Part shown: positions 7,024 to 48,002 of the stretch, one piece after another
Layout of the letters: every line of letters begins with the position of its first letter
How positions within the stretch are numbered: the first letter of the stretch is position 1
Translations under genes and position numbers: made by a program
Notes under the pieces: model-generated
What the model saw: the letters and a program-made list of their open reading frames with translations, nothing else
The model's database searches: none
What the model was told of the DNA's origin: nothing
Origin: Candidatus Dojkabacteria bacterium
GTDB lineage: Bacteria; Patescibacteriota; Dojkabacteria; J137
Assembly (NCBI GenBank): GCA_937944235.1
Contig: CALDYZ010000020.1
Coordinates: 1-48,002, forward strand
Direction of reading: 5' to 3'
Length of the DNA stretch: 48,002 nt

Positions 7024-7416
7024 ATGAAAAAAGATTCAAAAGGAAGGGTCATTGCATCCTTGACAGAAGTTAAAAATAAAACGGGAGACATATTCGCTTT
7101 GGTGGATCAGTGTGGTTCTGTATACTTAACTTCTTATAACAAGATTAGATATAAGATAGAAAAGGTAAGTATAGAAAGTCTGTTGTTAGATCAACACGAT
7201 AAAAATAAAAATGAAGAAGATAGTAGTGATTCAAAACCAACTTCTTTATTAGGTTCAAGCAATGAAAAAGCCGCTGAAAGTCTGAACATTAACGAGGTGA
7301 GTTCATCTGACAAAAGAGCATTAGACTTGCGCATTATAAGTTTAATTGATATTAATGAGTTTGACTTATCGATGGAATTGGATTTTGTTAAACAATCAAT
7401 CAAGCCTCTTATATGA
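7024..7416 (+). CDS. Putative antitoxin (Phd/YefM-like N-terminus, acidic Ser-rich tail)
   Basis: 130-aa ORF immediately upstream of a PIN gene. The N-terminal ~50 aa resemble the Phd/YefM fold pattern; the C-terminal half is low-complexity (D/E/S-rich). Confidence 0.5.
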   Translation: MKKDSKGRVIASLTEVKNKTGDIFALVDQCGSVYLTSYNKIRYKIEKVSIESLLLDQHDKNKNEEDSSDSKPTSLLGSSNEKAAESLNINEVSSSDKRALDLRIISLIDINEFDLSMELDFVKQSIKPLI

Positions 7417-7447
7417 TATTTATTTAGTTATATTTATATTAAAGTGT

Positions 7448-7828
7448 ATGAAAAGTCTTGTTTTAGTAGATACATCTATTATTTTGGAGTATCTTAAAAC
7501 TGGTAAAGGTGCTTTACCTGCTGCTTATGAAAAGTATCAAATATGTGTTCCAGTGACAGCTTTAATTGAGATTTTTGCAAGTAGTACTTTTCGAGACGAA
7601 TCTTTAAAAAAAGATGTTGAAGAGTTTTGTGATAAATACTTAACTTTCAAAGATATAAACAAACAGACTGCTTTCTTAGCTGCAGATTTGGTGAGAGAAC
7701 ACAAAATAACTTTTGCAAAGGCTTGTTTATGGGCTTTATCAATTCAGGAAGATATAGACCTTTTGGTAGATTCTATCAAAGAAAAAAATGAAGCTTCGGC
7801 TGTGGGTGTGAAGGTTTTGTTAATGTAA
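7448..7828 (+). CDS. PIN-domain (VapC-like) toxin
   Basis: MKSLVLVDTSIILEYL gives the canonical N-terminal PIN Asp, LIEIF gives a Glu, and the size is about 126 aa. The ATG at 7448 is preferred over the track start at 7346. Confidence 0.65.
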   Translation: MKSLVLVDTSIILEYLKTGKGALPAAYEKYQICVPVTALIEIFASSTFRDESLKKDVEEFCDKYLTFKDINKQTAFLAADLVREHKITFAKACLWALSIQEDIDLLVDSIKEKNEASAVGVKVLLM

Positions 7829-11425: not shown

Positions 11426-12229
11426 TCACTGAGTTTTTCTTGCCAGAACAATGAATCTTTGTGAGTTATTACCTAAAGGATAACAAGTGAATAAGGTTAA
11501 TGTGTCTGTGTTTGGTGTATTGCTTATTATGCTTAAATCTTGAGGGTTAACAACCTTGGTCCTAAATACAGTGTATTCGTATTTGGCTTCTTTGAAATCT
11601 AATATTATTTTGTCTCCTATTTTTATTTCTGGCAAAAAGGAAAATGCCAATTTTGGATCATTTTTTTGTGGATTATATATCATACTAGCACTATGACCAT
11701 AAATTACAGTATTGGATTTTTCGTCACTTAAAGGTAAACCAGTATATTTAAAATGCGCTAGTGTATTTTCTAAAACTTTTTGATATATTGACTCTGTATC
11801 ACTTTGAACATTTGGGGTTACTGGCAGATTATAAATACCTATTGAAGGTATGCTGATGAAGAATTTTTGTGTAAAAGATAATATGTTGGGATCCATTATC
11901 AATTTTCCACCTTTCATAGCTTTTTCAGTAAGTTCAGTTAAACCAACGGGTTTTGCTATGTAATTGTCAACTAACAGATATCCCTCTTCTACTGGGGTTA
12001 TATTATTTTGAACATCTTTACCTATTGCTAGTATCAAATTTTGATAGAGGTTATCAATAATTGGTATTGCCGCGATTGTAAAACCTAAAAGTATTGACAT
12101 TATTGATATAAATTTTTGAGCAAAATTTGCAGTACTTAGTGTATATTTTATATATTCAAATATATCTGCTAAAATTACTTTGAATTTTAACTTTTTTTGT
12201 TTTCTTTTATGAAAATAGCTGTCAATCAT
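11426..12229 (-). CDS. Sortase-family transpeptidase
   Basis: N-terminal TM, catalytic His in VIYGHSASM, the TLxTC motif (LTLFTCYP), and a downstream Arg (RFIVLARK). The track start at 12250 is a TTG; the ATG at 12229 is preferred. Confidence 0.85.
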   Translation of the reverse strand: MIDSYFHKRKQKKLKFKVILADIFEYIKYTLSTANFAQKFISIMSILLGFTIAAIPIIDNLYQNLILAIGKDVQNNITPVEEGYLLVDNYIAKPVGLTELTEKAMKGGKLIMDPNILSFTQKFFISIPSIGIYNLPVTPNVQSDTESIYQKVLENTLAHFKYTGLPLSDEKSNTVIYGHSASMIYNPQKNDPKLAFSFLPEIKIGDKIILDFKEAKYEYTVFRTKVVNPQDLSIISNTPNTDTLTLFTCYPLGNNSQRFIVLARKTQ

Positions 12230-12259
12230 TATTTTTTGTCTTTTTATCAATAAAATTAT

Positions 12260-13570: not shown

Positions 13571-14389
13571 ATGCTTGACGTTAACTTTATGAACAATTTA
13601 AAATTGTGGCTTTTGCAAGCGAAGTATGATTTATCTGTTAGTTTAATTTCAAAGGAGAATCATTTTTTGGAGTGGGCCATGTATCAATCTTTACAATCAT
13701 CAGAAAAATGCTTAAAGGGACTAATCTCGATAGTTACCAGAGATATACCGAAAACTCATAAATTATCCTTTCTCTATAAATTTATAAATAAACTTGGCAT
13801 TAAAAATATACCTGTTGATATTTCGTCAATGAAAAAATTGGAAGTATACGTTTACGTATGTAGATACCCATTTATAATAGATTCCTCCAATGTTCCTCAT
13901 AATTTGATATCTTTAGCAGATGTGAATTTTAGTATTTTAACCGCTGAACAATTGTTGAAATATTCGGAAGGTTATTTAACAGGAGATATAGATGTAACCA
14001 ACCATTTTGTCAATGATGATAGTATTTTAAGATACTGGGATAGAAAAGAAATTTTAGATATATTAAATCTTATAATTCAAAATATAATTGAAAATGGTAA
14101 ATATAAGGTTTTAAAAATAATCTTGATTGGTGATTATGCAAGAGACTTTGCACAGAGAATTGATAAAACGATTGATCTTTTGATAATTGTTGAAAAAGAT
14201 TCAAAAAACAATTTTGGATTTATAGAATTAACAAATTTTTTTAATAATTTATTAATAAATTATGACGTTAACTTAGATATAATTGCTTATAGTAAAGAAG
14301 ATTATGATGCTTTTATGTACATAATGAAAGATGGATTCCTTGAGTCTGCCATAAAAAATGGGAAGGTACTCTGGGAGTCAAACAAATAA
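13571..14389 (+). CDS. Fused HEPN-domain / minimal nucleotidyltransferase-like protein
   Basis: The N-terminal half has a HEPN-like helical pattern (WLLQAKYDLSVS...EWAMYQSLQSSEKCLKGLI...CRYPF). The C-terminal half has an MNT-like strand-turn motif LIGDYARDFAQRIDKTIDLLIIV (compare GSYARG...SDIDLL). Confidence 0.65.
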   Translation: MLDVNFMNNLKLWLLQAKYDLSVSLISKENHFLEWAMYQSLQSSEKCLKGLISIVTRDIPKTHKLSFLYKFINKLGIKNIPVDISSMKKLEVYVYVCRYPFIIDSSNVPHNLISLADVNFSILTAEQLLKYSEGYLTGDIDVTNHFVNDDSILRYWDRKEILDILNLIIQNIIENGKYKVLKIILIGDYARDFAQRIDKTIDLLIIVEKDSKNNFGFIELTNFFNNLLINYDVNLDIIAYSKEDYDAFMYIMKDGFLESAIKNGKVLWESNK

Positions 14390-25434: not shown

Positions 25435-25458
25435 TCATATTTTAAGCGGTCACATGTT

Positions 25459-27357
25459 ATGTATATCAGTATCGCCTTAAAATTATTACTTAAAGCTGTA
25501 ATGTTGACAATGCTATTTTGTCTAATTATTCTAATTTTGTATATCATTAGTCCTCCTAGGATAGTAAGTTCATATCCTATTACTGAGACAGTTTGGGACA
25601 CGTATTCACATCATATACAGATAAATTTTAATGTTCCAATTATTAAAGATAATATAAAAACTTCAATTGTACCCAACATATCTGGGCAGTGGGTATGGAA
25701 TGATTGTATAATTACAAACTTAGTTTGTGGGGTCCAATTTTTTCCTACATCTTATGTTGCATCTAGAACAAGATTTGTCATTTATCTTGCTGGATTGTCT
25801 CGTTTAGGTTTCTCTGAGTCACATGAACATGGTATAGTTTTTGATGCTCCAAGGTTGCCGATGATTTCAAATATAAAACCTAGTTTGGGTGATATCATTG
25901 ATGTAGGAGATACATCAAGCGTCATCCATTTGAATCTTGATAAAAGTTTGGAGCCTAACAATAAGATATTATTTAAAATGAAATCTACAGAGAAGTTTTT
26001 TGATCTTGAATATGAAAGTTCTAACAACAAATTTTATAAAATACAACTTCCAAAAGAAAACCTTGATTATAATTCGATCTTAGAAATAGATGTTTTTTTA
26101 ATTGAAGAAGTTGGTGATCAGAGTTACAGGCATAGGATAGGTTACTTAATGTACAAAACTCCTCCAAAGATAGGTTTCAAAGGTGTTATACCTTATGGTG
26201 AATCGGTCAAGCCAAATTCAAAAATTAGATTAAAGTTCGATAAGCCGGTTGATTTGCAAAGCGAAGTTGATTCATATATTGAAATTATACCTAACGTATC
26301 ACATGAGAAAAAATGGTTATCAGATACAGATTTAGAGTTGATAAAAAAGGAAGATTTAACCAAAAATACTAAATATGATATAATCCTAAGAAAAGGGTTA
26401 CTATACAAGGATGGTACTCGTCAGATCCAAGAAGTTGTACACTCTTTTAAGACTTATGGAGTAGCCAAAATAATAGAATCTTTCCCAAATAATGATGTTA
26501 ACTTATCTGTAGACTTTTTACAGATAAGATTGAAATTTAATCAACCTATGTCAGATTCTTCTGTTTATGATAGTTTTTACATTGTACCTTATGTTGGTTT
26601 TGTTATGCGTCTTGTAGATCAGTCAACATATATATTTGAGGTAACTAACTTAGAGTACAACACAGTGTATATCTATGGTTTAAAATCGGGGGTTCATAGT
26701 TTGTACGGACTAGATACTGATCAATCATATCAATACTCGTTTAAAACAAGAGACAATGTTTTTATTATGAATGTACCAAATTGTTCTTTAATTTCTCCAC
26801 AGTACTGCCAGCCTCAACAGCCTGTTTCTTTTTCTTGTAATATTTATGCTTTAAAAATGGTTTTAGCTTGGAAAGGGTACAATCTCTCGGCACAATCTAT
26901 AATTGCAGAGATGGGATATAACTCTAACTATACATCAATTTGGACAGGTAACCCAAACAAAGTTTACGTAGGTAATTCGGATGGTAGTTGGGGTTACGGT
27001 GTGTATTGGGACCCTACACAAAAAATACTGAATAACAGGAATATTGTTTCGGAAATTAAGAAAAATTGGAATATAATAGATCTTGTAAAGGAGGTAGAAA
27101 AAGGACATCCAGTTATAATTTGGAGATATAATGGGACTAGTACACCTGGTTATTTTAGCTGGATAGCAGATGATGGAGAAAAAATTAAAGCTATAAACGG
27201 ACAGCATGGTGGAGTTGTTACAGGTTTTAGAGGTTCTTCGAATAATCCTACACATATTCATTTAAATGACCCATGGTTTGGTTCCTTATGGTTAGATAAA
27301 AACACATTTGATTATTATTGGAGCTTTTTGGATAGAGTAGGTCTTGTGATATACTGA
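25459..27357 (+). CDS. Membrane-anchored protein with Ig-like (SbsA/Big_5-type) repeats and a C-terminal C39-like cysteine peptidase domain
   Basis: N-terminal TM. Repeated IRLKFDKPVDLQS / IRLKFNQPMSDSS strands. C-terminus has FSCNIYALKMVLAWKGYN (nucleophile Cys), GHPVIIW, NGQHGGVVTGFRG (His) and LNDPW (Asp). Confidence 0.7.
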   Translation: MYISIALKLLLKAVMLTMLFCLIILILYIISPPRIVSSYPITETVWDTYSHHIQINFNVPIIKDNIKTSIVPNISGQWVWNDCIITNLVCGVQFFPTSYVASRTRFVIYLAGLSRLGFSESHEHGIVFDAPRLPMISNIKPSLGDIIDVGDTSSVIHLNLDKSLEPNNKILFKMKSTEKFFDLEYESSNNKFYKIQLPKENLDYNSILEIDVFLIEEVGDQSYRHRIGYLMYKTPPKIGFKGVIPYGESVKPNSKIRLKFDKPVDLQSEVDSYIEIIPNVSHEKKWLSDTDLELIKKEDLTKNTKYDIILRKGLLYKDGTRQIQEVVHSFKTYGVAKIIESFPNNDVNLSVDFLQIRLKFNQPMSDSSVYDSFYIVPYVGFVMRLVDQSTYIFEVTNLEYNTVYIYGLKSGVHSLYGLDTDQSYQYSFKTRDNVFIMNVPNCSLISPQYCQPQQPVSFSCNIYALKMVLAWKGYNLSAQSIIAEMGYNSNYTSIWTGNPNKVYVGNSDGSWGYGVYWDPTQKILNNRNIVSEIKKNWNIIDLVKEVEKGHPVIIWRYNGTSTPGYFSWIADDGEKIKAINGQHGGVVTGFRGSSNNPTHIHLNDPWFGSLWLDKNTFDYYWSFLDRVGLVIY

Positions 27358-34633: not shown

Positions 34634-35827
34634 ATGCTAAGTATGTCAAACAACAAAATAAATACTTTTCTATCTATAGATATAGGTACAGAAAATTTGA
34701 AAATAGCTTTATGTACGGTACATTTTAATACAGTAGAGATAATAGGTTTCAAAAAACTTCCACAGGTTAGAGGTTCGGTAAGGTCTTCTTTTATAATAGA
34801 TATAGCCTCAGTTATCGAAAAAATTGATTTAGGAGTAGGTTTGATAATTAGTGAAGTTAAAGATGAGTATGATATAAATTTACCCAACACCGCTGTTTTT
34901 GGTGTAGCTGGAGAATCTGTTTTGGGCAAAACAGTTCATATAGAATTTGTGCGAAAAAAAAATAATGTAATTTCTGAGTCAGAGTTTTTGTCTATTGTAA
35001 ATGCTGCAAAGGATGGTGTATTTGAATCAGTAAAGCCTAACTTAGCTGAAAATTCACTAATAGATGAACATCTACTTGCAGAAGTTACAACAGAGCTGAT
35101 AGGTATCAAATGTGATGGTCAATACGTAAAGGAAGCTGTTGGAGTTAGTGCAGGCAATATAGAATTAGTTTTTTATGTCGCTTACGCTCCACAAATATAT
35201 TTAGATAGTTTATCTAAAATAGCGAATAAATTTTCATTATCAGCGTTTAAAACTTTTGTAGAACCTTTTGCTATATCACAAACGTTAGATTTAGATGTAA
35301 ATTATGCTAATAATTGTGTTGTGGTGGATATAGGTGGAGGAACTACAGATGTAGCTGTGATGTCTAATAAAGAATTAGTTGGCACTAAAATATATGGAAT
35401 AGGAGGAAATACTTTTACGCAGTATATAGCTGATAAATTAAACATTAATTTTGATAAAGCTGAAGAATTAAAACTTCAGTATTCCAACCAAAAATTAACT
35501 CATACAGAAGAAGTAGAGTTATCGCGGATTATAGATAAGGCAGCATATGTTTGGGCCCGGTCATTAGAATTGGCTTTATTAAAACTGATAGATACGAAGG
35601 AATTGCCTTATAACTTTTATTTTTGTGGAGGATCATCTCTTTTACCCAATATTCAGCAAATAATGATTAGTTATCCTTGGCAACAAAAACTAAATTTTGT
35701 TAAATATCCCAAATTTAACTATTTGTTTCCAAACAAAATAAAGGATGTTGTGGACAAAACTAGAACAGTTAATTCATTGTCTGATGTTGCTGTGATGTCT
35801 TTAGCGAGTTATTTTGTAAAAAAATGA
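34634..35827 (+). CDS. Second actin-fold ATPase (FtsA/PilM-like paralog)
   Basis: LSIDIGTENLKIAL (phosphate 1), VVVDIGGGTTDVAVM (phosphate 2), GIGGNTFTQYIA, and FYFCGGSSLLPNI (adenosine). An SHS2-like insert sits between phosphate 1 and 2, as in FtsA. Confidence 0.75.
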   Translation: MLSMSNNKINTFLSIDIGTENLKIALCTVHFNTVEIIGFKKLPQVRGSVRSSFIIDIASVIEKIDLGVGLIISEVKDEYDINLPNTAVFGVAGESVLGKTVHIEFVRKKNNVISESEFLSIVNAAKDGVFESVKPNLAENSLIDEHLLAEVTTELIGIKCDGQYVKEAVGVSAGNIELVFYVAYAPQIYLDSLSKIANKFSLSAFKTFVEPFAISQTLDLDVNYANNCVVVDIGGGTTDVAVMSNKELVGTKIYGIGGNTFTQYIADKLNINFDKAEELKLQYSNQKLTHTEEVELSRIIDKAAYVWARSLELALLKLIDTKELPYNFYFCGGSSLLPNIQQIMISYPWQQKLNFVKYPKFNYLFPNKIKDVVDKTRTVNSLSDVAVMSLASYFVKK

Positions 35828-37650
35828 TAATACATTCATCTAAGTATTTTTTAGATTTAGATACAAATTTATTTAATGTTTATGACATTTTAGAAAATGA
35901 AGGAAAGGACCATATAATAATTGTTATACCTACTGATAGTACTTTGTTTGATGGTCAAATAAATTTTGATATAATCAGAACATTTTGCGATGACCTTAAG
36001 AAAGTCGTTGTGATAGTTACAGAAGATGAAAAAGGTTTAAAAATGATACAAAGAAGTGGTTTGGTTGGAGTTAAAAAGATAAGTCAGGTAACGGTAGATT
36101 TGTGGCAAGTAGCTGAACAGAGAGTTTATTTAGCACAGAGAAATAATGTATCAAATATTCAAGAAGTTGAAAATGTTTATCAAACAAATGATTTGTCATA
36201 TGAACATTCTAAGTTGAAGTATACTGATGAAAGTGAAACTGATAATGATAGTTATATGGTGAATTTTGATGAGAAGGATGTAGTTTTTTATGTAGGTAAG
36301 GATGTAAAGAAGATAGTGAGTAAATCTAAGAAAGAGGATATACAAAGAGTTGAAAATTTCGGATCTCTGATTGCAGGTAATGACTATAGCAAGTTTCTCT
36401 TTAAGAAGAATGATAGAAATAAAAATTATTTGTATTTTGTTTTGAGAATATTGTCAAGTTTGTTTTTTTTTAGAAAAAACTTGTTATTGTTTTCTGCAAT
36501 AACGATCTGTATACTTATTAGTGCATTAGTAATATTTAATAGGTTCTTAATAAGTGAGGTATTAATAACCACCGTTAAAGAAGAAATAGTTAAGGAATTT
36601 AAAGTAATATTGTCTGAAAGCTACAATGAAGATGATACGTATACTACCGATGGTGTAAAGTCATCATTAACTATAGAAGAGATAGAAGATGTGTCTATAT
36701 CAAAAACTTTTAACATATCAAAAAAAACAAAAACAGGTAATAAAGCAGTCGGTTTAATATCTTTGTATAATTTAACTGATCAAGATATAAACTTGCCAGT
36801 GGGTACAAAAGTAAAGTCTCTTATTCTAGGCAAGGAATACGTAGTAACCAAAGAAGTGGTTGTGCCTAAAGTATCCAGAAACTCCCTAGGGGAAAAAATC
36901 CCACAATCTGTAGAAGATGTAACAATACAAGCTTTGGAATATGGCGAATCTTATAACTTGTCTCTTTCTCAAGGGGATGATAATTTTATTATCTTGTTAG
37001 ACGGTTATGACGATGTTTCCAAAGCTTCAGGTCGTATATTCAGAGATATAAAAGGGGGAGAATCGTTTGAAGTATTTAGAGTCTTACAGAGTGATGTTGA
37101 TGATGTAATAGAAGATATAAAAAATGAACTCCGATTGATAACAAAAGATAAATTGTTAAGTAGAGTTTTAGCTACAGAAATTGCTTTTACAAAGAATATA
37201 AATTATATATTAACTGAAAAAAAAATCTTACCAGACATTGGGGAGGATTCTGCAGACGGATTGTTTACTATATCTATGAAAATGAAGGGAGAATTACCAA
37301 AAATATCAAAGTTTAAATTAGATGAGTTGGCTAAAATTTATTTTCAGAATGTTAATGAAAAACAGCTAGAAACTCAAAATCTAAAATCACAGATCTTAGA
37401 TATTGTTTATGATGAACAAAACAAAGTTTATCATTTGAATGTTGGTTTATCAGCCAATGTTATTAGTAGATTTTCTGAAGAATACATTTTTAACCTAATT
37501 AAGGGAAAGTTTGATGCGGAAGCAAAATACATTTTGTCGAATAATGAAAATATATCTTCTGTAAACATACTTTTTAAACCTGGCTTTGTACCTGATTTTA
37601 TGAAATATATACCAACAGATAAAGATAGAGTGCAAATACGCATAATTTAG
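35824..37650 (+). CDS. Large bitopic membrane protein (about 210-aa cytoplasmic N-domain, one TM, about 370-aa outside domain), unknown family
   Basis: 608-aa ORF whose start overlaps the upstream stop (ATGA). Single TM LLLFSAITICILISALVIFNRFLI. No motif I can name. Confidence 0.7.
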   Translation: MIIHSSKYFLDLDTNLFNVYDILENEGKDHIIIVIPTDSTLFDGQINFDIIRTFCDDLKKVVVIVTEDEKGLKMIQRSGLVGVKKISQVTVDLWQVAEQRVYLAQRNNVSNIQEVENVYQTNDLSYEHSKLKYTDESETDNDSYMVNFDEKDVVFYVGKDVKKIVSKSKKEDIQRVENFGSLIAGNDYSKFLFKKNDRNKNYLYFVLRILSSLFFFRKNLLLFSAITICILISALVIFNRFLISEVLITTVKEEIVKEFKVILSESYNEDDTYTTDGVKSSLTIEEIEDVSISKTFNISKKTKTGNKAVGLISLYNLTDQDINLPVGTKVKSLILGKEYVVTKEVVVPKVSRNSLGEKIPQSVEDVTIQALEYGESYNLSLSQGDDNFIILLDGYDDVSKASGRIFRDIKGGESFEVFRVLQSDVDDVIEDIKNELRLITKDKLLSRVLATEIAFTKNINYILTEKKILPDIGEDSADGLFTISMKMKGELPKISKFKLDELAKIYFQNVNEKQLETQNLKSQILDIVYDEQNKVYHLNVGLSANVISRFSEEYIFNLIKGKFDAEAKYILSNNENISSVNILFKPGFVPDFMKYIPTDKDRVQIRII

Positions 37651-39745: not shown

Positions 39746-39780
39746 GGTTTTGATTATTGCGCGTTTCAAAAAACTCAAGA

Positions 39781-39814
39781 AGCGAACCAAACAAAAATTT
39801 GGTTCGCTTTTTTT
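39781..39814 (+). terminator. Rho-independent terminator of groESL
   Basis: Perfect 11-bp stem AGCGAACCAAA / TTTGGTTCGCT, 6-nt loop, followed by a run of T residues. Confidence 0.85.
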
Positions 39815-39887
39815 AGGCGAAGATATTGAGTTATTAATTTTTTTATGTTTATACTATTTTAATGTGTATTTATATATATTTTTTGTT

Positions 39888-40256
39888 ATGAAAAACTTAA
39901 TAAGTCTAATTCTGAGTTTGTTACTTGTTTTTCTTTCTTATAATATCAGCGTGTTTGCTAATGCTGGAGGATTTGTTCCAAGAATACCAAATCCTAGTAA
40001 ATTCAATACTGGTGAGGATATAATCAATGCACTAGCTGGTCTGATTAGACCTGCTTTCTTGATTGGTTTTGCTGCAATGTTGTTTTTTGGTGCGTGGACA
40101 TACCTTACAGCAGGTCCTGACGATGGTAAAATTAAGAATGCAAAAAATATAATTACTGCAGCCATTGGTGGTTTTATATTGGCGGTGCTGGCACCAACAA
40201 TCATGAATTTTATTGGCGGTTTACTTGGTGTACAAGGTGGTTTAACAATTTTGTAA
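39888..40256 (+). CDS. TrbC/VirB2-like (T4SS-pilin-type) small membrane protein, paralog 1
   Basis: Signal peptide MKNLISLILSLLLVFLSYNISVFANA, TM1 LIRPAFLIGFAAMLFFGAWTYL, loop TAGPDDGKIKNAKN, TM2 IITAAIGGFILAVLAPTIMNFIGG. The start at 39888 lies downstream of the groESL terminator. Confidence 0.75.
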   Translation: MKNLISLILSLLLVFLSYNISVFANAGGFVPRIPNPSKFNTGEDIINALAGLIRPAFLIGFAAMLFFGAWTYLTAGPDDGKIKNAKNIITAAIGGFILAVLAPTIMNFIGGLLGVQGGLTIL

Positions 40257-40257
40257 A

Positions 40258-40866
40258 ATGAGAGTTTTACTTTTTATTATTTTTTTTGCTGCTATTATAT
40301 TTTTGTACAATTCATATTTGTCAGCTAATGAAGGTAGTGATCCGTGTGCTATTGTTAAAAGCCAGTGTCCCAAACCTTGTAAAGGTATTCAGAATGAGCT
40401 TAATTGTTACATACCTAATTTTGATTGTTTATCTAAAAAACCATTAGAACCGAAGTTATCGTGTTGTATATCTAAATGTAAGGATAGTGCAAAATCGGGT
40501 TTTAATGAAAATGAACTGAAGGAATTTTATCGGACTTTTAATTTTTTTGGCACGAAGGTCAACGTAAATACTAGTAGTTTGGTGGGATGGGTTACTCTGT
40601 CAGTGCAAGCTTTCCTAGCTGTTGTTTCTGTTGTAGCTTTATTAAGAGGGATTAAGGCAGGAGCATTTGATTTACCAAGAGGAGATAAACTTGAAGAAGT
40701 AAAAAAAGATGTGAGGAATACTTTATTAGGTTTTTTCTTAGCATGGGGTGCTATTTTTATTATCCAAGTCGTACTTTCTGTGCTAGGTATACCTGGTTTG
40801 AACGAGTTGGTAATCATTGGAGATCAACCTGGTTCTAAAACTGGCGGTACTATAGTTATTAAATAG
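40258..40866 (+). CDS. Two-TM hairpin (pilin-like) paralog 2 with an 8-Cys N-terminal ectodomain
   Basis: Signal peptide, 8 Cys in about 50 aa (DPC..SQC..KPC..LNC..FDC..SCC..SKC), TM1 LVGWVTLSVQAFLAVVSVVALL, basic loop, TM2 TLLGFFLAWGAIFIIQVVLSVLGI. It begins 1 nt after paralog 1. Confidence 0.7.
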   Translation: MRVLLFIIFFAAIIFLYNSYLSANEGSDPCAIVKSQCPKPCKGIQNELNCYIPNFDCLSKKPLEPKLSCCISKCKDSAKSGFNENELKEFYRTFNFFGTKVNVNTSSLVGWVTLSVQAFLAVVSVVALLRGIKAGAFDLPRGDKLEEVKKDVRNTLLGFFLAWGAIFIIQVVLSVLGIPGLNELVIIGDQPGSKTGGTIVIK

Positions 40867-40888
40867 TTAATAATAATAATATAACAAT

Positions 40889-41377
40889 ATGATGTATCGA
40901 ATTTTAGTACAAATATTTCAAAATAGTGGATCTGATAAAATTTTACCTGAGCAAATATCTGATAAAATCAAGCCTATTGAAATCCCAATTTTCCCAATTG
41001 TGGTCGAAGGTTTTGATCCGAAATATTCCACCATTTTATCATGGTTATCTTTTGCTGGAGTAATCTTGACAATAATTGTTTTAGCAATTTTCATAGTGAG
41101 AATCGTTTTTTTAAGTTATAAAATGATAGTTCAAGGGTCAGAAAAGGAAGAAGTTGTTGGTGATGTATTTAAAAAATTTAGGTTGAATTTTGTAGGTTTA
41201 ATTATTACTTTTTTGACGCCAATTATATTATCTTTAATAGGTGGATTCCTAGGTATAGGTAACATTTTTCGGTGGCCAAAGATGTTTAGTTCTTGTTCTG
41301 GATCTGAATATGAATTCTATTTTGAAGCTTACTTAAGAGAAGGTACAGATGCCGACAATTTATGTTTTACTAATTAA
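40889..41377 (+). CDS. Two-TM hairpin (pilin-like) paralog 3
   Basis: TM1 ILSWLSFAGVILTIIVLAIFIVRIVFL, loop KMIVQGSEKEEVVGDVFKKFR, TM2 LNFVGLIITFLTPIILSLIGGFLGI. C-terminal tail with 2 Cys. Confidence 0.65.
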   Translation: MMYRILVQIFQNSGSDKILPEQISDKIKPIEIPIFPIVVEGFDPKYSTILSWLSFAGVILTIIVLAIFIVRIVFLSYKMIVQGSEKEEVVGDVFKKFRLNFVGLIITFLTPIILSLIGGFLGIGNIFRWPKMFSSCSGSEYEFYFEAYLREGTDADNLCFTN

Positions 41378-41394
41378 GTATTTATTTATGTTAT

Positions 41395-41775
41395 ATGAAT
41401 GAAAAACGTAACTATAATGCTTGTGATATTCTTGGCTGTCCAGAATCATTAATAGATGGCGGACAGATAGTATCTTCTGGTTCAAGTCTGGTCGAGTATG
41501 CAGTATCTTTGGTTTTCCCCGGGCTAATAGTTATTGGAGTCTTTGTGATAGTAAAATCTGCTTATAGGTTTATTAAAAGTGAAGGGGTAACTCAGGAAAT
41601 AGAATCTTCTCAAAAAGCAATAAAGAGAGTTTTTATTGGGATAATAATGCTGTTTTTGGGCTTTGTGGGTTATATATTGATACTAAGTTTTTTTAACGCA
41701 TCTAAAATAGATCTAAGTTCAGATAGTATTGAAAAACCTGGTGTTATAAAAAATATAGATGTCCCATTTATATAA
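41395..41775 (+). CDS. Two-TM hairpin (pilin-like) paralog 4
   Basis: N-terminal CDILGC pair, TM1 VSLVFPGLIVIGVFVIVKSAY, loop KSEGVTQEIESSQKAIKR, TM2 VFIGIIMLFLGFVGYILILSFF. Confidence 0.65.
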   Translation: MNEKRNYNACDILGCPESLIDGGQIVSSGSSLVEYAVSLVFPGLIVIGVFVIVKSAYRFIKSEGVTQEIESSQKAIKRVFIGIIMLFLGFVGYILILSFFNASKIDLSSDSIEKPGVIKNIDVPFI

Positions 41776-41805
41776 AAAAAAGATTTATTATGTATATGAA
41801 TAATT

Positions 41806-42609
41806 ATGAATATTACTAAATTCTTAATATCGTGCTTTGTCTGCTTCTTTTTAGCTATCAATAACAACATGCTTGTTGATACAATTTTTGCTCAAGGATT
41901 TTCTGGTAATGATCCTTCAAGCTACCAGTGTTTTGATTCCGAAGGAAAGAAATTGGATGTAAGGCCGACTCTAAAGGATGGTGTGATGACATGTGAATAC
42001 GAAGGCAAAACCTATCAAGCAGTACTAAAACCTGTAAGTTTACAGCAATTAGAAATATGGTTTATAAAAATAGTCTACTTTATATGGGCATTTGTTGCAA
42101 CGTTCTCTTTTGTTTTGTTACTTGGAGTAGCTTACCAATATATGATTTCTAGAAATGCTGGATCAGCTTTGGCACAGGCTCGTCAGAGAATTTTTCAATA
42201 TATTCTTGGTTTTGCGTTGGTGTTTTTAGCAGTACCAATACTTAGTACAATGTTTAGATTACTGGGAGTAGATGACTCGATAGAATGTTACTCTGGACTT
42301 AGTGGTGAAAATAATGTCGGTATTGGTTTTCAGTTTATATTTGCTGATTTGTGCACTGATCCAAAAGGCAAGTATCAGGATATACTAGGACATTTAGGCA
42401 GAGTAATCAATAGAGAAAGATCTAAAAGCCCTACTAATCCTATTGCTGTGCTAACAGCACTAAGAAATGAAATTGACAAAATAAATGGAACTGCATGTGA
42501 TGAAAGATCTTTTAGGGAAAATGTTCAGTGTATTGGAAATATCAAAGTAAGTATAGCATGTGTTAATGCTAGGTATAATGTAACAGTAGATTTTCCTTGT
42601 AATAAATAA
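41806..42609 (+). CDS. Two-TM hairpin (pilin-like) paralog 5 with Cys-containing N- and C-terminal ectodomains
   Basis: Signal peptide, 2-Cys N-module, TM1 IVYFIWAFVATFSFVLLLGVAYQYMI, loop SRNAGSALAQARQR, TM2 IFQYILGFALVFLAVPILSTMF, and a C-terminal ~110 aa with 6 Cys. Confidence 0.7.
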   Translation: MNITKFLISCFVCFFLAINNNMLVDTIFAQGFSGNDPSSYQCFDSEGKKLDVRPTLKDGVMTCEYEGKTYQAVLKPVSLQQLEIWFIKIVYFIWAFVATFSFVLLLGVAYQYMISRNAGSALAQARQRIFQYILGFALVFLAVPILSTMFRLLGVDDSIECYSGLSGENNVGIGFQFIFADLCTDPKGKYQDILGHLGRVINRERSKSPTNPIAVLTALRNEIDKINGTACDERSFRENVQCIGNIKVSIACVNARYNVTVDFPCNK

Positions 42610-42627: not shown

Positions 42628-44013
42628 ATGTTTTACCTGAATTGTAAATCTTTATTTTTTAGAGTTTTCAGAAAAGGACATTTAATGTATGTTTTAGATA
42701 AAAAAACTGCTTTTGATCTAAAAAGTAGTTTACAATTAAATAATCTAAGATTCGTTTCGACTGAACTTAGTTTGGAGCAAATTTTATCTGGGAAACATGA
42801 AGTCACTATAGAATTTTTTAGATTTGCTGATGATTTAAAATTATTAACACTATCCGACGTTTCATCGAAAGATTCTAATCATGTAGACAGTAAAATAATC
42901 ATAGACAGAAAGAATTTAATTAATAATACTAGATCACTTCTCAGTGAATTGGAAGTGAATCAAGATTCATTAGATAAATATCTGCGTAAAATTCAGCTGA
43001 GATTTTTTGAAAGTCAGATCAAAATTTACGATGATTCGATAAATAACAGCAAAAAAGACCATGAAACTAATCTAGAAAATTTAATATCTCAAAGAACTGC
43101 TTTTGAAAAATTAGTAAAAGATTTGAGTTATTTTCAAAATAAACTAAATTCAGTTGACCAACAAATTCAAAAACTACATGGACTGTTCCAAAATTTAGAT
43201 TTAAAAAAATATGTAGAAGATTTAAAAGTGAAAAGATTGATGCTTGTAAACCAGAAATTGAGAAATCCAACCATTGGTAATATACATAGTTCTTCTGTGG
43301 ATGAAAAGTTATCAGAGTTTGATAGCTTTGTAGGTGAAGGTATATTGATTCTTTCATTTGTACAAATTTTAGTGGCAACTTTATTTTTTGTAAATTTAGG
43401 TTTTGTGAAGGAAAATATAATATTTTCTACTTTTTACTTAATCTTTAATTTCTTTTCTTTTTTAATATTCAACAAATTGAGATTTAAACAAAAATTTGAA
43501 AGATTTTTAGACTCTTCCGAATCTCAAAAATACGAATTCGAGAAATTAGTAGGAACATTATCAAAAGAAACTGTAGAAAAAGTAAAACAAATATCTTACT
43601 TAGAAGCTTTGAATTATGAAAAAAAAATTATAGAAAAATCAATGAATTTTTTGAGTGGTGGTAAAAGCGTAGATGAATTAAAAATTACAATAGAAGAATT
43701 AGATAAAAAAATTAATGAATCGGTCAATTTAGATGACCGTTGGATAATTGATGAGGATCAATATTATTACTGCAAAAGAGAAATAAATCTACTTAAATTA
43801 GAAGTCGATGATTATGATGCTGAGATTGAAGTAGAAAATTTAAATAAATTTGCAAGTGTGGGTGATTTTTTATCAAAATTACATCTTATGAAAGATGAGT
43901 ATATGTTGCCATTATTTATACAAGTTGATAGTGGTTTTGATTACAATAAAGATTTTGATCCACAAAGATATGATATCAAAGATAAACAAATTATATTTAT
44001 AAGTTTTGCATAG
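42628..44013 (+). CDS. Coiled-coil membrane protein (two central TM helices), unknown family
   Basis: 461-aa ORF. Heptad-rich segments flank the TM pair ILILSFVQILVATLFFVNLGF / IIFSTFYLIFNFFSFLIF. An alternative start is the Met at 42685. Confidence 0.65.
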   Translation: MFYLNCKSLFFRVFRKGHLMYVLDKKTAFDLKSSLQLNNLRFVSTELSLEQILSGKHEVTIEFFRFADDLKLLTLSDVSSKDSNHVDSKIIIDRKNLINNTRSLLSELEVNQDSLDKYLRKIQLRFFESQIKIYDDSINNSKKDHETNLENLISQRTAFEKLVKDLSYFQNKLNSVDQQIQKLHGLFQNLDLKKYVEDLKVKRLMLVNQKLRNPTIGNIHSSSVDEKLSEFDSFVGEGILILSFVQILVATLFFVNLGFVKENIIFSTFYLIFNFFSFLIFNKLRFKQKFERFLDSSESQKYEFEKLVGTLSKETVEKVKQISYLEALNYEKKIIEKSMNFLSGGKSVDELKITIEELDKKINESVNLDDRWIIDEDQYYYCKREINLLKLEVDDYDAEIEVENLNKFASVGDFLSKLHLMKDEYMLPLFIQVDSGFDYNKDFDPQRYDIKDKQIIFISFA

Positions 44014-44101
44014 AAATTAGTGCTAGAAACTGGAAATATGAATTACTTGAGAAAGTTTTATAGAAATATTAAAATTTGATTTAGTGTTAAATTTTAACTT
44101 A

Positions 44102-45916
44102 ATGTTATCAAAATTGTTTATTTTCCCATTTTGTTTTCTTGTTTGGTCGTTTTTAGCTCCTCAATTAGTATTTGGGCAAAGTTCTATAGACTTTCAAAAT
44201 CTAATAGCTAGTAAAGAGTACGAGCTAAATGAGTTAAATAAAAAAATCAAAGATATAGAGGAAAAATCAAAGTTGATTTCTTTAGATTTATTAAAAACAA
44301 GTTCTGAATTAGAAAAATTAGACAGAGAGTTAGTTTACTATGAAAATGAAATTGAGAAGATTAATTTATTTAGACAAAGATCATTATTGGAAATTGAGAT
44401 ACATAAATCTAAAAAAAAAGAATTAAGCTTGATACAAAATGCTGCATCAAAGATCACATACAAGAATTGGAGGTCAAGTAATATATTGCAAAAAACTTCA
44501 ATATTCTTCGTAACAGAGCTATATGATCCGAAAAGATATGAAAAATACAATGATACGTATTTTAGTAATGTTGATTTAAGTATAACTGATGTTTCTAGGA
44601 ATATATTGTTTTTGGATGAACAGATATCAAGAACTGCTGAAGGGATCAATGATTTCAACAAAATCAAAAAGGATTTAGTAGCAAAAAAAGCAGAGATACA
44701 ACAAAGTTTGTATTTGTTGAGTAATGAGAGGAACAGCTACAGAAAAGAGTATTTGTCAATTAGTGACAATATAAATAAGTTGAAGTCTGATATAACCTTT
44801 TTAAGTAATGAGCAAAAAAAAGCAATTGAGAGAGAAATTATGATGTTAGCTAATGCTAATCCAAGTAATAATCAAGTTTCTTTACAGCCCGGTGAATTTT
44901 ACTTTAAAGGTCAGGGAAGAGATTTATATCAAGGACATGGAGTAGGTATGAGTCAATTTGGTGCCCATGGAGCTGCTTTAAACGGCTATAGTTATGACCA
45001 AATTCTGAAATTTTATTATCAAGGAGTTGAAATTTCTGACTTGCATCATACACAAAACATAATGGTTGATGGTTATGGGTATATGGATATTGAAGACTAT
45101 GTATCAGGACAGGGAGAGGTCCCAGCTTATGCGTGCGGAACACAAGATCAAATTGATGAATGGCGGATATACGCAGATGTTCAAGGTTGGGAACACAATG
45201 ATCCTAGGAGAAAAAAGTATGTAATTGATGATACTTCTACTATATGGGATTGCTGGCCAGAAGAAGCAATAAAAGCTCAAGTTGTTGCTTTTAGAACCTA
45301 TGCTTTAAATTATGTATCCAGGAAAGGTTCCATATGTACCTCGGCTGCTTGTCAGGTGTATAAAAACAATAAAAATTCAGCATGGGCTGCAGAGGAGACC
45401 AAAGGTAAGGTTATTACTTACAGTGGTGAATTGATAGAGGCCCTTTACTCTTCGGATAACAATCAAGGTTATGGTACTGCAAACAACGATACCGTGTTTA
45501 CCAATTTTCATGGTGATGGAACACCATACCCGTATTTAAGGTCTGTAAATGACAGTACTTTTGCAACAAAAACGTTTTATTCCAATTGGAAATATAATAC
45601 TAGAAAATATACTTTTGAAAGCATTTTTCAGATGCTTAGTTACATAGCCTATGCACCCAATAGTGATATAGATAGATATGATAGTTTTGTCCGAAATAAT
45701 ACAAAGTCCTTAATAAATGGATCGATAAGTATTAATTCTATATCTTTAGAATTAGATCCATCTAAGAGGGTTAAGAAAGTTTTTATTCAATTTGATAATG
45801 GGAGTATAAAAAGCATCAGCGGTTATTGGTTTAAATATATGTGGAATGTTTGGTCGTTTTATACAGGTAGTTATGACTATATTTATAGTCAGACGTTTGC
45901 CTTAGCATATGAATAA
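44102..45916 (+). CDS. Secreted coiled-coil + SpoIID/LytB-domain protein
   Basis: Signal peptide MLSKLFIFPFCFLVWSFLAPQLVFGQ, about 230 aa of coiled coil, then SpoIID motifs GHGVGMSQFGA, AIKAQVVAFRTYALNY, CTSAACQVYK, ETKGKVITYSGELIEALYSS. The track start (44084) is a GTG; the ATG is at 44102. Confidence 0.85.
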   Translation: MLSKLFIFPFCFLVWSFLAPQLVFGQSSIDFQNLIASKEYELNELNKKIKDIEEKSKLISLDLLKTSSELEKLDRELVYYENEIEKINLFRQRSLLEIEIHKSKKKELSLIQNAASKITYKNWRSSNILQKTSIFFVTELYDPKRYEKYNDTYFSNVDLSITDVSRNILFLDEQISRTAEGINDFNKIKKDLVAKKAEIQQSLYLLSNERNSYRKEYLSISDNINKLKSDITFLSNEQKKAIEREIMMLANANPSNNQVSLQPGEFYFKGQGRDLYQGHGVGMSQFGAHGAALNGYSYDQILKFYYQGVEISDLHHTQNIMVDGYGYMDIEDYVSGQGEVPAYACGTQDQIDEWRIYADVQGWEHNDPRRKKYVIDDTSTIWDCWPEEAIKAQVVAFRTYALNYVSRKGSICTSAACQVYKNNKNSAWAAEETKGKVITYSGELIEALYSSDNNQGYGTANNDTVFTNFHGDGTPYPYLRSVNDSTFATKTFYSNWKYNTRKYTFESIFQMLSYIAYAPNSDIDRYDSFVRNNTKSLINGSISINSISLELDPSKRVKKVFIQFDNGSIKSISGYWFKYMWNVWSFYTGSYDYIYSQTFALAYE

Positions 45917-46526
45917 ATCTTATTTAAAAAGAAAAATATTGGAGGATATTCTGAAGAATCAGGAATATCGCAGGTGTGCAAATGAATTAAAAAGAAAAAT
46001 TTATTTTAATGGACAGAATCCAGACGAAGTTATTTTTGCAAAGTTAAGGAGTTCATATATTAGAAACATTTCTTGGCTAATTGAAATATTATTTCTTTTT
46101 GTTTTGCCCATTTTGTTACCTGAATTAATAAATTTTATGAACAGTCTAAATGTAATTATTATTGAAAAAACTTTTTTAAGTTATACAGTTATTTTCGTCG
46201 CATATTACAGTATTTTATTAACTTTTTTTGTTTACAAGTTTTTAGACTGGTATTTAGATATTTACTTAGTGACCAGTCAAAGACTTATAGAAATAGTATT
46301 TAGGCCTTATGGTGACATTTACACAAAAGAAATATGGTTAGGAGATATAGATACTATAAAAACTAGTAGCTCTGGATTATTAGGACTTATTTTGAATTAT
46401 GGGGACATTAAAATTATAACTCGTACTGAAAGTGGAGGAGCAGAATTAAAATATATATCTAATTTTAACAAAGTTAAGAATTTGATATCTGATTTAAGTA
46501 AAATTAGTAAAAAGTATGAAAATTAG
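45909..46526 (+). CDS. Bacterial PH-domain (bPH_2/YdbT-like) membrane protein
   Basis: Two TM helices, then LDWYLDIYLVTSQRLIEIVFRPYGDIYTKEIWLGDIDTIKTSSSGLLGLILNYGDIKIIT. It overlaps the SpoIID-gene stop by 8 nt. Confidence 0.75.
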   Translation: MNKSYLKRKILEDILKNQEYRRCANELKRKIYFNGQNPDEVIFAKLRSSYIRNISWLIEILFLFVLPILLPELINFMNSLNVIIIEKTFLSYTVIFVAYYSILLTFFVYKFLDWYLDIYLVTSQRLIEIVFRPYGDIYTKEIWLGDIDTIKTSSSGLLGLILNYGDIKIITRTESGGAELKYISNFNKVKNLISDLSKISKKYEN

Positions 46527-46547: not shown

Positions 46548-46757
46548 ATGTTTGAAGATAATTTATACAATTTCATAAAGATTTGTCTTTTATTAGTTAG
46601 CGTAGTGCATGTTGTTTTTGCTACTTTGTTGTATTTACAAGTTAATAGATATACTAGGATATTGGTCTTACATGACAATAAATTCATAATTATTGCAAAG
46701 AAAATATATATGTTGATAGTATTATTAAGTAGCTTAATAATTATGTTTGTAACATGA
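46548..46757 (+). CDS. Small hypothetical two-TM protein
   Basis: 69-aa ORF with hydrophobic segments ICLLLVSVVHVVFATLLYL and IYMLIVLLSSLIIMFV. Its stop overlaps the next start (ATGA). Confidence 0.45.
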   Translation: MFEDNLYNFIKICLLLVSVVHVVFATLLYLQVNRYTRILVLHDNKFIIIAKKIYMLIVLLSSLIIMFVT

Positions 46758-48002
46758 GTAAGTTTGTTTCGGAGTATTTAGTTAAAAATAATTTGGAAGG
46801 TGTTATTTCTTCTATATATGGTAGTCAACTTAACTTACCAGAACGTGAAGTGAATTTGTTAATTTTATTAAGTACTTCTGCTAATAAACAAAACAGAGAA
46901 TTATCGATTATTAATAAATTCATATCTGACGATTTACTTGCTTTTATTTCGGCCGAGATTTCGGCAGGTCGAGAAAATATGGATGTTCTAGAAAAAGTTC
47001 AATTAAGATTAGAATATGTAGTGAACAATGTTTTGGAAAAAGATGTAGAGTTGTCTGAGACAGGAATAGATATAAATATGATATTTGTTATTTTAGAAGA
47101 AGAATACTTTTATATATACACTTTTGGAGAAGTTTTCGCTTATTTGAAGAGACTAGATAAGTTTGTTTCAATATCTGATTTGTTAAATCAGGCATCCAAG
47201 CGGAATCACATTAAATTGGGTAGTATGCACCTGCAGGATTCAGATAGATTAGTTTTGGGAATACTTGCTGACAAAAATAAGGAAGATTTGGATCTTATTT
47301 TACATGAAATTCTTGATAAACTTGATTTGCAAATTTTATCAAAATTTTCAAGTTTCGTATCTACCTGTTTGGCTAATTCTGAAGATTCGTGGCCGGTTGA
47401 TTCTGTTAGTAAGGTGAATTTGCAAGATTCAGACAATACTTTAAAAATTAATGAAACGAATCCTAAAGCTGTTAAGACTGAAAATGGTTATGCTGCAAAT
47501 ACAAGTGTAGAATATGAAAAAGAAAGCGAATCCTATCATTTTGAATATCGAACAAATTCCTATTTTTCTAAGTTAACTCCTAATTTGTTTAACTTTTTTT
47601 ATCAGTTACTGGAGAGTGTATTTAAAAATAAAAAGAGATCTCAATCTGGGGATAATTCTGAAAATAGTACTTCTAGTAAACAAAATACATTTTTACAGAA
47701 GACGATCAGAGATTTTGTGTTAAAAATCCAGAATTTTATTAGATCAGAGGGCTTTGTTTTTTTGAGATCAAGATTTATATTATTTTTAAACCAGATTTTA
47801 TCATACATTAAAAAACTTTTATTCGTACCATCTGACATAAATCCAAGAAACAGAGTTTATTATCACAAGGTAGTTACAAGAAATAGACTCATTTTAGTTG
47901 TTGTTTTTGTTTTACTTGTAGTTTATGTGTATAACTCTTATAAAAATGCGGAAATACAAAGACAGGAAATCTTATATAAGGAAAGGGTAACTACTGATTT
48001 TA
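46754..48002 (+). CDS. Partial CDS (3' end outside the window): degenerate PP2C-like N-domain, linker, TM helix
   Basis: My own translation from the ATG at 46754 is open for 416 codons to the window edge; this ORF is not in the supplied track. GIDINMIFVILEEEYFYIYTFGEVFAYL and MHLQDSDRLVLG resemble PP2C strands, with the GDSRAY Asp replaced by Glu. TM LILVVVFVLLVVYVY lies near the end. Confidence 0.6.
   Translation, partial: MSKFVSEYLVKNNLEGVISSIYGSQLNLPEREVNLLILLSTSANKQNRELSIINKFISDDLLAFISAEISAGRENMDVLEKVQLRLEYVVNNVLEKDVELSETGIDINMIFVILEEEYFYIYTFGEVFAYLKRLDKFVSISDLLNQASKRNHIKLGSMHLQDSDRLVLGILADKNKEDLDLILHEILDKLDLQILSKFSSFVSTCLANSEDSWPVDSVSKVNLQDSDNTLKINETNPKAVKTENGYAANTSVEYEKESESYHFEYRTNSYFSKLTPNLFNFFYQLLESVFKNKKRSQSGDNSENSTSSKQNTFLQKTIRDFVLKIQNFIRSEGFVFLRSRFILFLNQILSYIKKLLFVPSDINPRNRVYYHKVVTRNRLILVVVFVLLVVYVYNSYKNAEIQRQEILYKERVTTDF

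Follow-up and report, generated by a model that had tools for sequence, protein, structure and literature searches.

Five tandem genes in a Dojkabacteria contig

The window considered here is the whole 48,002-nucleotide (nt) contig CALDYZ010000020.1 of a Candidatus Dojkabacteria bacterium, a stretch of about 30% GC that carries, on its plus strand, five open reading frames (ORFs) in tandem at positions 39888-42609. The encoded proteins, called c1 to c5, have lengths of 122, 202, 162, 126 and 267 amino acids (aa), and their genes are set apart by 1, 22, 17 and 30 nt, in agreement with the coordinates and the 1-30 nt spacing given in an earlier interpretation of the letters alone (the sequence-only reading). 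The five genes are very probably VirB2-like paralogues of the T4SS_pilin family (PF18895).

The first gene, c1 (39888..40256, plus strand), encodes a signal peptide with a predicted cleavage site after VFA, a 20-aa N-terminal segment and a transmembrane (TM) hairpin; its ectodomain is minimal, with 20 and 10 residues, and the mature protein is free of Cys, as in nearly all species. The product of c2 (40258..40866, plus strand) combines a signal peptide, an 83-aa N-terminal ectodomain with 8 Cys and the TM hairpin; C57, C69 and C74 are invariant in the family, and the N-terminal ectodomain of the orthologues mostly contains 6 or 8 Cys. The c3 protein (40889..41377, plus strand) starts with a 46-aa acidic N-tail and ends, after the hairpin, in a 38-aa C-tail; this tail contains 2 Cys, and so, exactly, does that of 25/25 orthologues. 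In c4 (41395..41775, plus strand), an N-tail with a conserved CxxxxC pair precedes the hairpin and a 25-aa C-tail, and the N-terminal ectodomain has 2 Cys in 22/25 orthologues. Lastly, c5 (41806..42609, plus strand) codes for a signal peptide, a 51-aa beta-rich N-terminal ectodomain (2 Cys), the hairpin and a 115-aa C-terminal ectodomain (6 Cys), and its invariant residues C42, C63, C161, C183, C231 and C252 lie on both sides of the hairpin.

Topology, cysteines and structure models

Kyte-Doolittle hydropathy places two adjacent TM-like segments in each of the five copies and a signal-like N-terminal segment in c1, c2 and c5, confirming the two-helix core with a short charged loop that the sequence-only reading had ascribed to all of them. 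The hairpin loops are short and net positive (+1 to +3) in every copy, and the remaining segments are neutral to acidic, with the exception of the Sec-exported c2 N-terminal ectodomain (net +3); the distribution fits a predicted topology with the loop inside and both termini outside (N-out/C-out), as had been proposed. The Cys counts outside the signal peptides, 0, 8, 2, 2 and 8 from c1 to c5, also stand as first reported, and all of these residues fall in predicted ecto-segments, with none in the hairpin. Their density reaches 9.6% in the c2 N-terminal ectodomain and 5.2% in the c5 C-terminal ectodomain, whereas Cys makes up 0.58% of twelve cytoplasmic housekeeping proteins encoded in the window. 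Moreover, Cys totals are even in 34/37 members of the c5 family and in 62/67 of the c2 family, and the ectodomain Cys, whose set is specific to each position of the array, are invariant or nearly so.

In the c5 family, mean column identity is 61% in TM1, 72% in TM2 and 64% in the membrane-proximal C-terminal segment, and it falls to 21% in the distal C-terminal ectodomain, which varies in length around a constant Cys scaffold. Such a pattern, conserved proximally and variable distally, would be expected of an exposed binding surface. The monomer model suggested by the sequence-only reading was obtained for c5 with AlphaFold2 (AF2) from a 37-sequence alignment and displays, at a mean predicted local distance difference test (pLDDT) score of 80.7, a two-helix hairpin with folded ectodomains on both sides. 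Specifically, it comprises a signal helix (3-22), a small beta N-terminal ectodomain (40-71), hairpin helices of about 35 residues each (79-114 and 119-152), and a C-terminal ectodomain with helices (193-227) and a beta-sheet (239-262). The AF2 model of c2, built from a 4-sequence alignment, has a pLDDT of 52 and is too poor for use.

Homology among the copies and family membership

Among the five proteins, c1 alone exceeds the PF18895 gathering score of 26.6 bits, with 35.0 bits and an E-value of 1.6e-8 over profile positions 6-71 of 71; a c1 orthologue reaches 44.5 bits (E 1.6e-11), and the resemblance of the first copy to the Patescibacteria T4SS-pilin family, noted in the sequence-only reading, is borne out. 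Taken singly, c3 and c4 match PF18895 below threshold (c3: E 0.034, 14.6 bits, with an orthologue at 8e-6 and 26.3 bits; c4: E 0.0093, 16.5 bits, with orthologues at 0.0019-0.0072 and at best 18.6 bits), and c2 and c5 do not match it, so that four of the five copies are missed by the standard cut-offs of hidden Markov models (HMMs). For c5, the membership emerges from its relatives, as 31 of 48 database homologues (E 1e-30 to 1e-55) carry PF18895, one of them is named 'pilin' by NCBI, and the best c5 orthologue scores 17.9 bits against the family. The outlier is c2, for which a whole-library profile search retrieves 73 representatives; 33 of the 67 aligned members of its family match PF18895, the best with an E-value of 5.8e-9. 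Of the PF18895 architecture, in which a signal peptide precedes two hydrophobic helices joined by a short charged loop, the hairpin is found in 5/5 copies and the signal peptide in c1, c2 and c5.

Profile-profile comparison (hhalign) of deep alignments links c2 to c5 with a probability of 96.8% (E 2.7e-10), c1 to c5 with 96.8% (E 2.9e-10) and c1 to c2 with 96.1% (E 2.9e-9), and all three alignments share one register that runs from the end of TM1 through the loop and TM2 to a terminal LLGV-like motif. The similar opening of the second helix, which the sequence-only reading had noticed, reflects real homology, as hhalign pairs KNAKNIITAAIGGF of c1 with AQARQRIFQYILGF of c5 and with EEVKKDVRNTLLGF of c2. 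With thin 3-sequence profiles, the pilin copies match one another at 11-77% (c1-c3 76%, c2-c4 71%), except for c1-c4 at 1.4%, and control membrane proteins of the same locus (d6, x208 and YidC, see below) match them at no more than 2%. Because intermediate sequences belong to PF18895, the profile-profile alignments are in register and the controls stay at or below 2%, the shared core represents homology and goes beyond a common topology.

The earlier assignment to VirB2/TrbC-type pilins holds for all five genes as far as PF18895 is concerned and lacks an above-threshold match to the TrbC family PF04956: its gathering score of 27.9 bits is not reached by any copy or orthologue, the best being a c1 orthologue with 20.5 bits (E 5.7e-4, positions 6-97 of 98), followed by a c5 orthologue with 14 bits (E 0.06).

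Other kinds of small membrane proteins were considered and rejected. Type IV pilins are set aside as all five copies have two TM helices and no conserved class III signal peptide; a loose search for the class III motif yields a sole match, GSSLVE at residues 29-34 of c4, at the start of TM1, which is judged a chance resemblance to a prepilin cleavage motif, the spacing to Glu being unconserved in orthologues and the upstream CxxxxC tail being conserved. Sortase-assembled pilins are set aside as well, with the motif [LIV]PX[TSA]G present in none of the five proteins, and so are phage holins, given no PHROGs match at E up to 0.01 and a housekeeping chromosomal context conserved across the class.

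Conservation and fixed gene order

In a scan with one genome per species, the c5 subfamily is found in 24 genomes, all of them Dojkabacteria or unclassified or automatically labelled metagenome-assembled genomes (MAGs) of Patescibacteria, including three chromosomes or contigs of 1.11-1.19 Mb, and all loci (L numbers) were annotated with HMMs built from the families of the window. Three chromosomes of Dojkabacteria, complete or nearly so, contain the locus (OY969472.1, OZ246402.1 and BOLA01000001.1). The array is present in 23/24 species-level loci in the order c1-c2-c3-c4-(c4b)-c5, and this recurrence, the outcome of a synteny check that the sequence-only reading had proposed, speaks against spurious ORFs. 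Orthologues of every copy in syntenic loci are 50-73% identical to those of the window, the nearest named relative being the Candidatus Dojkabacteria MAG GCA_003694175.1, with 52% identity for c2 and c5. Gene order is the same in the loci of close (c2 at 60% and 52%) and distant (c5 at 36-48% identity) relatives and reads p608 - GroEL - (ClpB) - c1 - c2 - c3 - c4 - c4b - c5 - d6 - (SpoIID) - x208 - s73 - p804 - SmpB - p190 - ATPase, with ClpB and SpoIID variable.

Six genes make up the usual array. A few genomes contain a seventh, an additional c1 or c4-like gene, and in the window and its nearest relatives the absence of c4b leaves five. The c4b gene lies between c4 and c5 in most species (L007:9847-10416 and most of L016-L039) and encodes a signal peptide, one Cys pair and the hairpin; c4 and c4b both have a CxxxxC-type pair, and hhalign relates these sister paralogues at 99%. 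The description of the array as diversified, in the sense of fast-evolving, has to be abandoned: judging by the sequences, each position is an ancient orthologue group with an architecture of its own, kept in a fixed order across the class.

Locus L026 (JANWZV010000032.1) is the only one in which neither c1-c4 nor groEL can be detected over the 10 kb that precede the c5 homologue, and its lineage may be very divergent or rearranged. In distant relatives, a gene of about 108 aa and a ClpB-like gene of 860 aa, which the window lacks, lie between groEL and the first pilin gene; ClpB-type inserts are located at L013:4356-7270, L014:4424-7329 and L015:3597-6496, and the L015 insert region also contains an IS200/IS605-type Y1 transposase.

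Transcription and genomic context

The groESL operon and the array are set apart by an intrinsic terminator 3' of groEL (39780..39814, plus strand), identified both by direct reading and by a scan, in which a 12-bp stem (AAGCGAACCAAA / TTTGGTTCGCTT) is followed by T7. At 33 nt upstream of c1 lies a weak promoter-like site, TTGAGT-18-TATACT (39826..39855, plus strand), which is a candidate only, as promoter-like sites are no more numerous in the region than in shuffled sequences (45 versus 44.8). With a terminator after groEL and this weak site before c1, the array is probably a transcription unit of its own. No clear Shine-Dalgarno sequence is seen upstream of the five ORFs.

The other genes of the window comprise those for UvrD, TrmD, S15, FtsA, FtsZ, sortase, RpoD, RNase Y, ParAB, IleRS, YidC, L25, GroES/EL and a SpoIID-domain protein. 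The window also encodes a PIN-domain protein (7346-7828), the sortase on the minus strand (11426-12250), a HEPN-domain protein (13571-14389) and, at 22465-27357, a 989-aa Acyl_transf_3 fusion protein and a 632-aa protein with Big_5 and Peptidase_C39-like domains. Two further genes, at 34634-37650 (plus strand), share 4 nt: the first encodes a 397-aa FtsA/PilM-like actin-fold protein and is not the true ftsA, which lies at 8921-10219, and the second encodes a 608-aa protein without a Pfam or NCBIfam match. In the Dojkabacteria relatives with a retrieved upstream flank, groES comes after these two genes.

Downstream neighbours and secretion machinery

The gene that always follows c5 in the syntenic loci of relatives is d6 (42628..44013, plus strand), coding for a 461-aa coiled-coil protein with a central TM pair, no Pfam family, and matches to PDB sequences through the coiled-coil only. 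Next in the window comes a 610-aa SpoIID-domain protein (44084..45916, plus strand; PF08486, E 1.7e-12), a candidate peptidoglycan-remodelling enzyme with a long N-terminal coiled-coil, whose gene belongs to the cluster in about two thirds of the relatives and is missing there in about one third; speculatively, it could stand in for a VirB1-type wall hydrolase. It is followed by x208 (45909..46526, plus strand), a 205-aa membrane protein conserved by synteny and with no Pfam, NCBIfam or PDB match, and by s73 (46548..46757, plus strand), a 69-aa two-TM protein whose orthologues weakly match DUF5657. The last gene, the p804 orthologue (46754..48002, plus strand), is cut by the end of the window after its N-terminal 416 aa and is seen at full length at L004:16197-18611. 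The p804 family consists of bitopic proteins of about 800 aa that have a conserved N-terminal cytoplasmic domain and end in an NHL-type beta-propeller of six blades, which matches the PknD-derived 'Pizza' proteins at an E-value of about 1e-13.

In relatives, p804 is followed by SmpB, by a gene of about 190 aa (p190) and by an ATPase of about 805-820 aa, which stands seven genes downstream of c5 in 16/16 loci with enough downstream flank (L004:19649 onward, L015:17111-19531 and L014:16876-19335, for example) and which, by synteny, would start about 2.4 kb past the last base of the window. The ATPase is made of one N-terminal TM helix, a DUF8128 domain of about 300 aa and a VirD4/TrwB/DotL-like P-loop domain, and its family matches DUF8128, DUF87, T4SS-DNA_transf, TrwB_AAD_bind and TraG-D_C in Pfam. 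Its profile finds DotL (5.4e-6) and TrwB (3.1e-5) in the PDB, and the NCBIfam models TraD, TraG, CD1115 and VirD4-like score far above VirB4 (0.02-0.06). Because both profile libraries favour coupling proteins, the ATPase is described as VirD4-like, that is, similar to type IV coupling proteins (T4CPs), and its identification as VirB4 is rejected.

Pfam scans of every window ORF of at least 90 aa reveal no VirB4, VirB6, VirB11, VirD4 or relaxase. By the criterion of pilin genes within about 20 coding sequences of virB4, trsD, virB3 or virB6, the array is not placed in a virB4-centred T4SS cluster, as none of these is found in the window or, in relatives, over 10 kb on either side. The remark of the sequence-only reading that no secretion machinery is in view thus applies to the window, and part of this absence comes from the contig end, beyond which the T4CP-like ATPase is placed by synteny. 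The products d6, x208, s73, p804 and p190 have no match to a T4SS (type IV secretion system) component, as assessed with d6, x208 and p804 profiles against the PDB and with the proteins of relatives against NCBIfam and Pfam. Patescibacteria have many T4CP homologues (5,713 in 2,918 genomes), most of them showing no linkage to virB4, and the one of Candidatus Southlakia epibionticum is non-essential (PMC12102498); for these reasons, the linkage of the ATPase to the array is suggestive and not a proof of function. As to VirB4 itself, the Dojkabacteria-class genomes in part of the rows of Table S1 of PMC12102498 are VirB4-positive, and a preprint names Dojkabacteria among the T4SS-bearing groups.

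Comparison with known pilin systems

Known VirB2, TraA and TrbC pilins have about 60-80 aa in their mature form. The Dojkabacteria proteins share with these canonical pilins the signal peptide, the two hydrophobic helices, the short basic loop and a predicted N-out/C-out membrane pool, along with the sub-threshold matches of c1 and c5 orthologues to PF04956. They differ in their mature size, up to about 237 aa with globular disulfide-rich ectodomains, in lacking an above-threshold or solved-pilin match, in the absence of a signal peptide from c3 and c4 of this lineage, and in belonging to a monoderm organism, as opposed to the Gram-negative T4SSs.

A closer parallel is offered by a survey of 3,035 Patescibacteria genomes with PF04956, PF18895 and CONJScan profiles (independent E-value below 0.001, more than 50% HMM coverage), in which 441 arrays of 2-11 divergent VirB2-like pilins were detected in 383 assemblies (Quinonero-Coronel et al. 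2025, Microb Genom; PMC12102498). VirB2-like pilins were present there in 1,948 VirB4-positive assemblies and near virB4 in 1,135 of the 1,948. The Dojkabacteria array resembles the surveyed ones in its PF18895 membership, its tandem same-strand arrangement, its low inter-copy identity (about 25% on average in the survey), its chromosomal location and the absence of a relaxase, and many of the surveyed arrays likewise do not adjoin virB4. By the criteria of the survey, c1 would be the one gene of the window to be detected, and the locus would be entered as a lone pilin. The survey makes no mention of Cys-rich ectodomains or disulfides, of a groEL or SpoIID context, or of position-specific orthology.

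In Ca. Southlakia epibionticum ML1, an essential series of predicted pilin genes lies inside a T4SS cluster (Wang et al. 2023, Cell; PMC10633639), and a review describes these pilins as six, structurally conserved, divergent in sequence, VirB2-like and unique among monoderms (PMC12857230). The likeness extends to the number of copies, about six there and six in most Dojkabacteria, to the monoderm organization of both members of the candidate phyla radiation (CPR) and to the absence of a relaxase. However, the S. epibionticum pilins are located within a virB4/virB3/virB6 cluster, whereas the Dojkabacteria array has none of these genes within 10 kb and is linked to an ATPase of the T4CP-like type. 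The VirB2 paralogue arrays of Bartonella and Anaplasma, read as antigenic or host-range variants of one subunit (cited in PMC12102498), share the tandem amplification of VirB2-like genes, whereas the Dojkabacteria copies are ancient, architecturally distinct and positionally fixed. Lastly, the Mbov_0395 family of Mycoplasma integrative and conjugative elements (ICEs; NF045849) resembles c1 as a small two-TM VirB2-like protein of a wall-less or monoderm lineage, with an E-value of 3.5e-4 and 20.2 bits, below the 40-bit cutoff; it is ICE-encoded and outside any array, in contrast to c1.

The novelty implied by the sequence-only reading is reduced accordingly, as arrays of 2-11 VirB2-like pilins are published (PMC12102498, PMC10633639, PMC12857230) and a homologue of the fifth copy already bears the NCBI name 'pilin'. 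Since 441 Patescibacteria arrays and the S. epibionticum six-pilin cluster have been described, this kind of array is known, and the Dojkabacteria locus is a lineage-specific case of it; the new details are the disulfide-rich ectodomains, the sub-threshold members, the class-wide positional orthology, and the genes for an NHL-propeller protein and a T4CP-like ATPase in conserved linkage with the array.

Proposed function and alternative explanations

The best overall explanation, preferred with somewhat better than even confidence, is that the paralogous pilins would form a pilus of major and minor subunits built by a T4SS; the assignment of c1 as the major pilin and of the others as minor pilins with disulfide-bonded ectodomains is, in itself, evenly poised. 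Each protein would enter the cytoplasmic membrane via Sec/YidC as a helical hairpin, with the positive loop inside and the termini outside, and the ectodomain Cys would form disulfides, probably through an oxidoreductase like MdbA, from a family that is reported to be enriched in the CPR and to have a conserved CxxC (10.1101/335083). From the membrane pool, c1 would be drawn and polymerised into a VirB2-type pilus, of which it would be the major subunit, a role proposed in view of its small size, its lack of Cys, its place at the head of the operon and its comparatively good conservation. The other four, c2-c5, each with a conserved ectodomain of its own that disulfides would stabilise, would be scarce pilins of the minor, tip or base type, decorating the filament and making contact with host cells. 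Assembly would fall to a T4SS-type apparatus whose genes lie outside the window, namely to a VirB4 system encoded in another part of the genome; the linked genes downstream of the array, up to the VirD4/T4CP-like ATPase, may cooperate with it.

Several points weigh against this explanation. No filament has been seen in any Dojkabacterium, and c1 is a candidate major pilin by inference only. In this lineage, c3 and c4 have no signal peptide; in most other species, a third N-terminal hydrophobic segment is found at these two positions. VirB4, VirB3, VirB6 and TrsD are absent within 10 kb of the array in every examined locus. A Foldseek search of the PDB with the whole c5 model gives no match at E below 0.08, the query being dominated by its ectodomains and a bare hairpin being a poor target, and the non-significant matches are to 38 residues of AMA1 (E 0.08) and to MglB/Ragulator roadblock folds. 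The c1-family profile retrieves no solved pilin among PDB sequences at E up to 10, and because of this the link to canonical VirB2 derives from Pfam naming and one sub-threshold TrbC match. Moreover, the tight helical packing of VirB2-type pili may leave no room for ectodomains of 80-115 aa.

The lack of VirB4, VirB3 and VirB6 nearby would also suit a self-contained cluster, in which the pilins are assembled by d6, x208, s73, p804, p190 and the DUF8128 VirD4/T4CP-like ATPase with no VirB4 T4SS involved. This alternative is unlikely, and it draws on the block from c1 to the T4CP, which keeps the same order, strand and short gaps in all 16 loci with enough flank, even where c5 identity is 36-48% and ClpB or SpoIID is gained or lost, as well as on the VirB4-like size of the ATPase (about 800 aa, with a DUF8128 of about 300 aa), although its P-loop domain is nearest to coupling proteins. 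However, smpB, a housekeeping gene, is part of the block, with groESL, yidC and L25 at its borders, and the synteny may therefore reflect a generally collinear region of the chromosome. The five intervening proteins have no counterpart among T4SS components in Pfam, NCBIfam or PDB sequences, T4CP homologues number about two per Patescibacteria genome, with the linkage and dispensability mentioned above, and the listed part of the published table reports Dojkabacteria genomes as VirB4-positive. In a more far-reaching form, which is slightly less probable again, the class-wide block, with six VirB2-like pilins, would encode a self-contained surface organelle where a T4CP-type ATPase, not VirB4, extracts and polymerises pilins bearing disulfide-bonded adhesin domains; if true, it would represent a new type of machine made from T4SS parts.

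A further alternative, likewise unlikely, dispenses with polymerisation altogether: the hairpin would be an anchor only, and the five proteins would form a membrane-resident, hetero-oligomeric adhesin or receptor platform displaying disulfide-rich domains. The c2 and c5 ectodomains are large relative to known VirB2 pilins, neither the Foldseek search with c5 nor the c1 profile finds a solved pilus subunit, and no assembly machinery adjoins the array, all of which is compatible with mere display. Yet c1, a typical T4SS_pilin almost without ectodomain, has no obvious role as an anchor, and the homologous S. epibionticum array sits in an essential T4SS cluster.

The low inter-copy identity and the variation of the distal c5 ectodomain between species recall the antigenic-variation idea tentatively put forward for Patescibacteria in PMC12102498, by which the copies would be interchangeable major pilins serving antigenic or host-range variation. 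For the Dojkabacteria array this is quite improbable: each position forms an orthologue group apart, distinguished by length, domain layout and Cys pattern, in an order fixed in 23/24 species, the copies are not recent duplicates and their architectures are not interchangeable, and it is this fixed, non-interchangeable set that disfavours the idea. Finally, the idea that the ORFs are spurious or in decay, within an intergenic region rich in AT, to which the GC content of about 30% and the lack of a clear Shine-Dalgarno sequence might point, has practically no chance of being right and is refuted by conservation, with class-wide orthologues and invariant residues and Cys for all five ORFs and with 73 (c2) and 48 (c5) database relatives.

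Implications for Patescibacteria

Patescibacteria are obligate epibionts. S. epibionticum is the only one of them amenable to genetics, and it needs a T4SS that includes a VirB2-like pilin array in order to grow on its host. In Dojkabacteria, the ancient, positionally fixed and distinct paralogues argue for a heteromeric filament over antigenic variation. Because standard HMM cut-offs detect one of the five genes of the present array, the published counts of pilin arrays are probably underestimates. The disulfide-scaffolded ectodomains that several of the paralogues carry, with their variable distal surfaces, are obvious candidate host-recognition modules.

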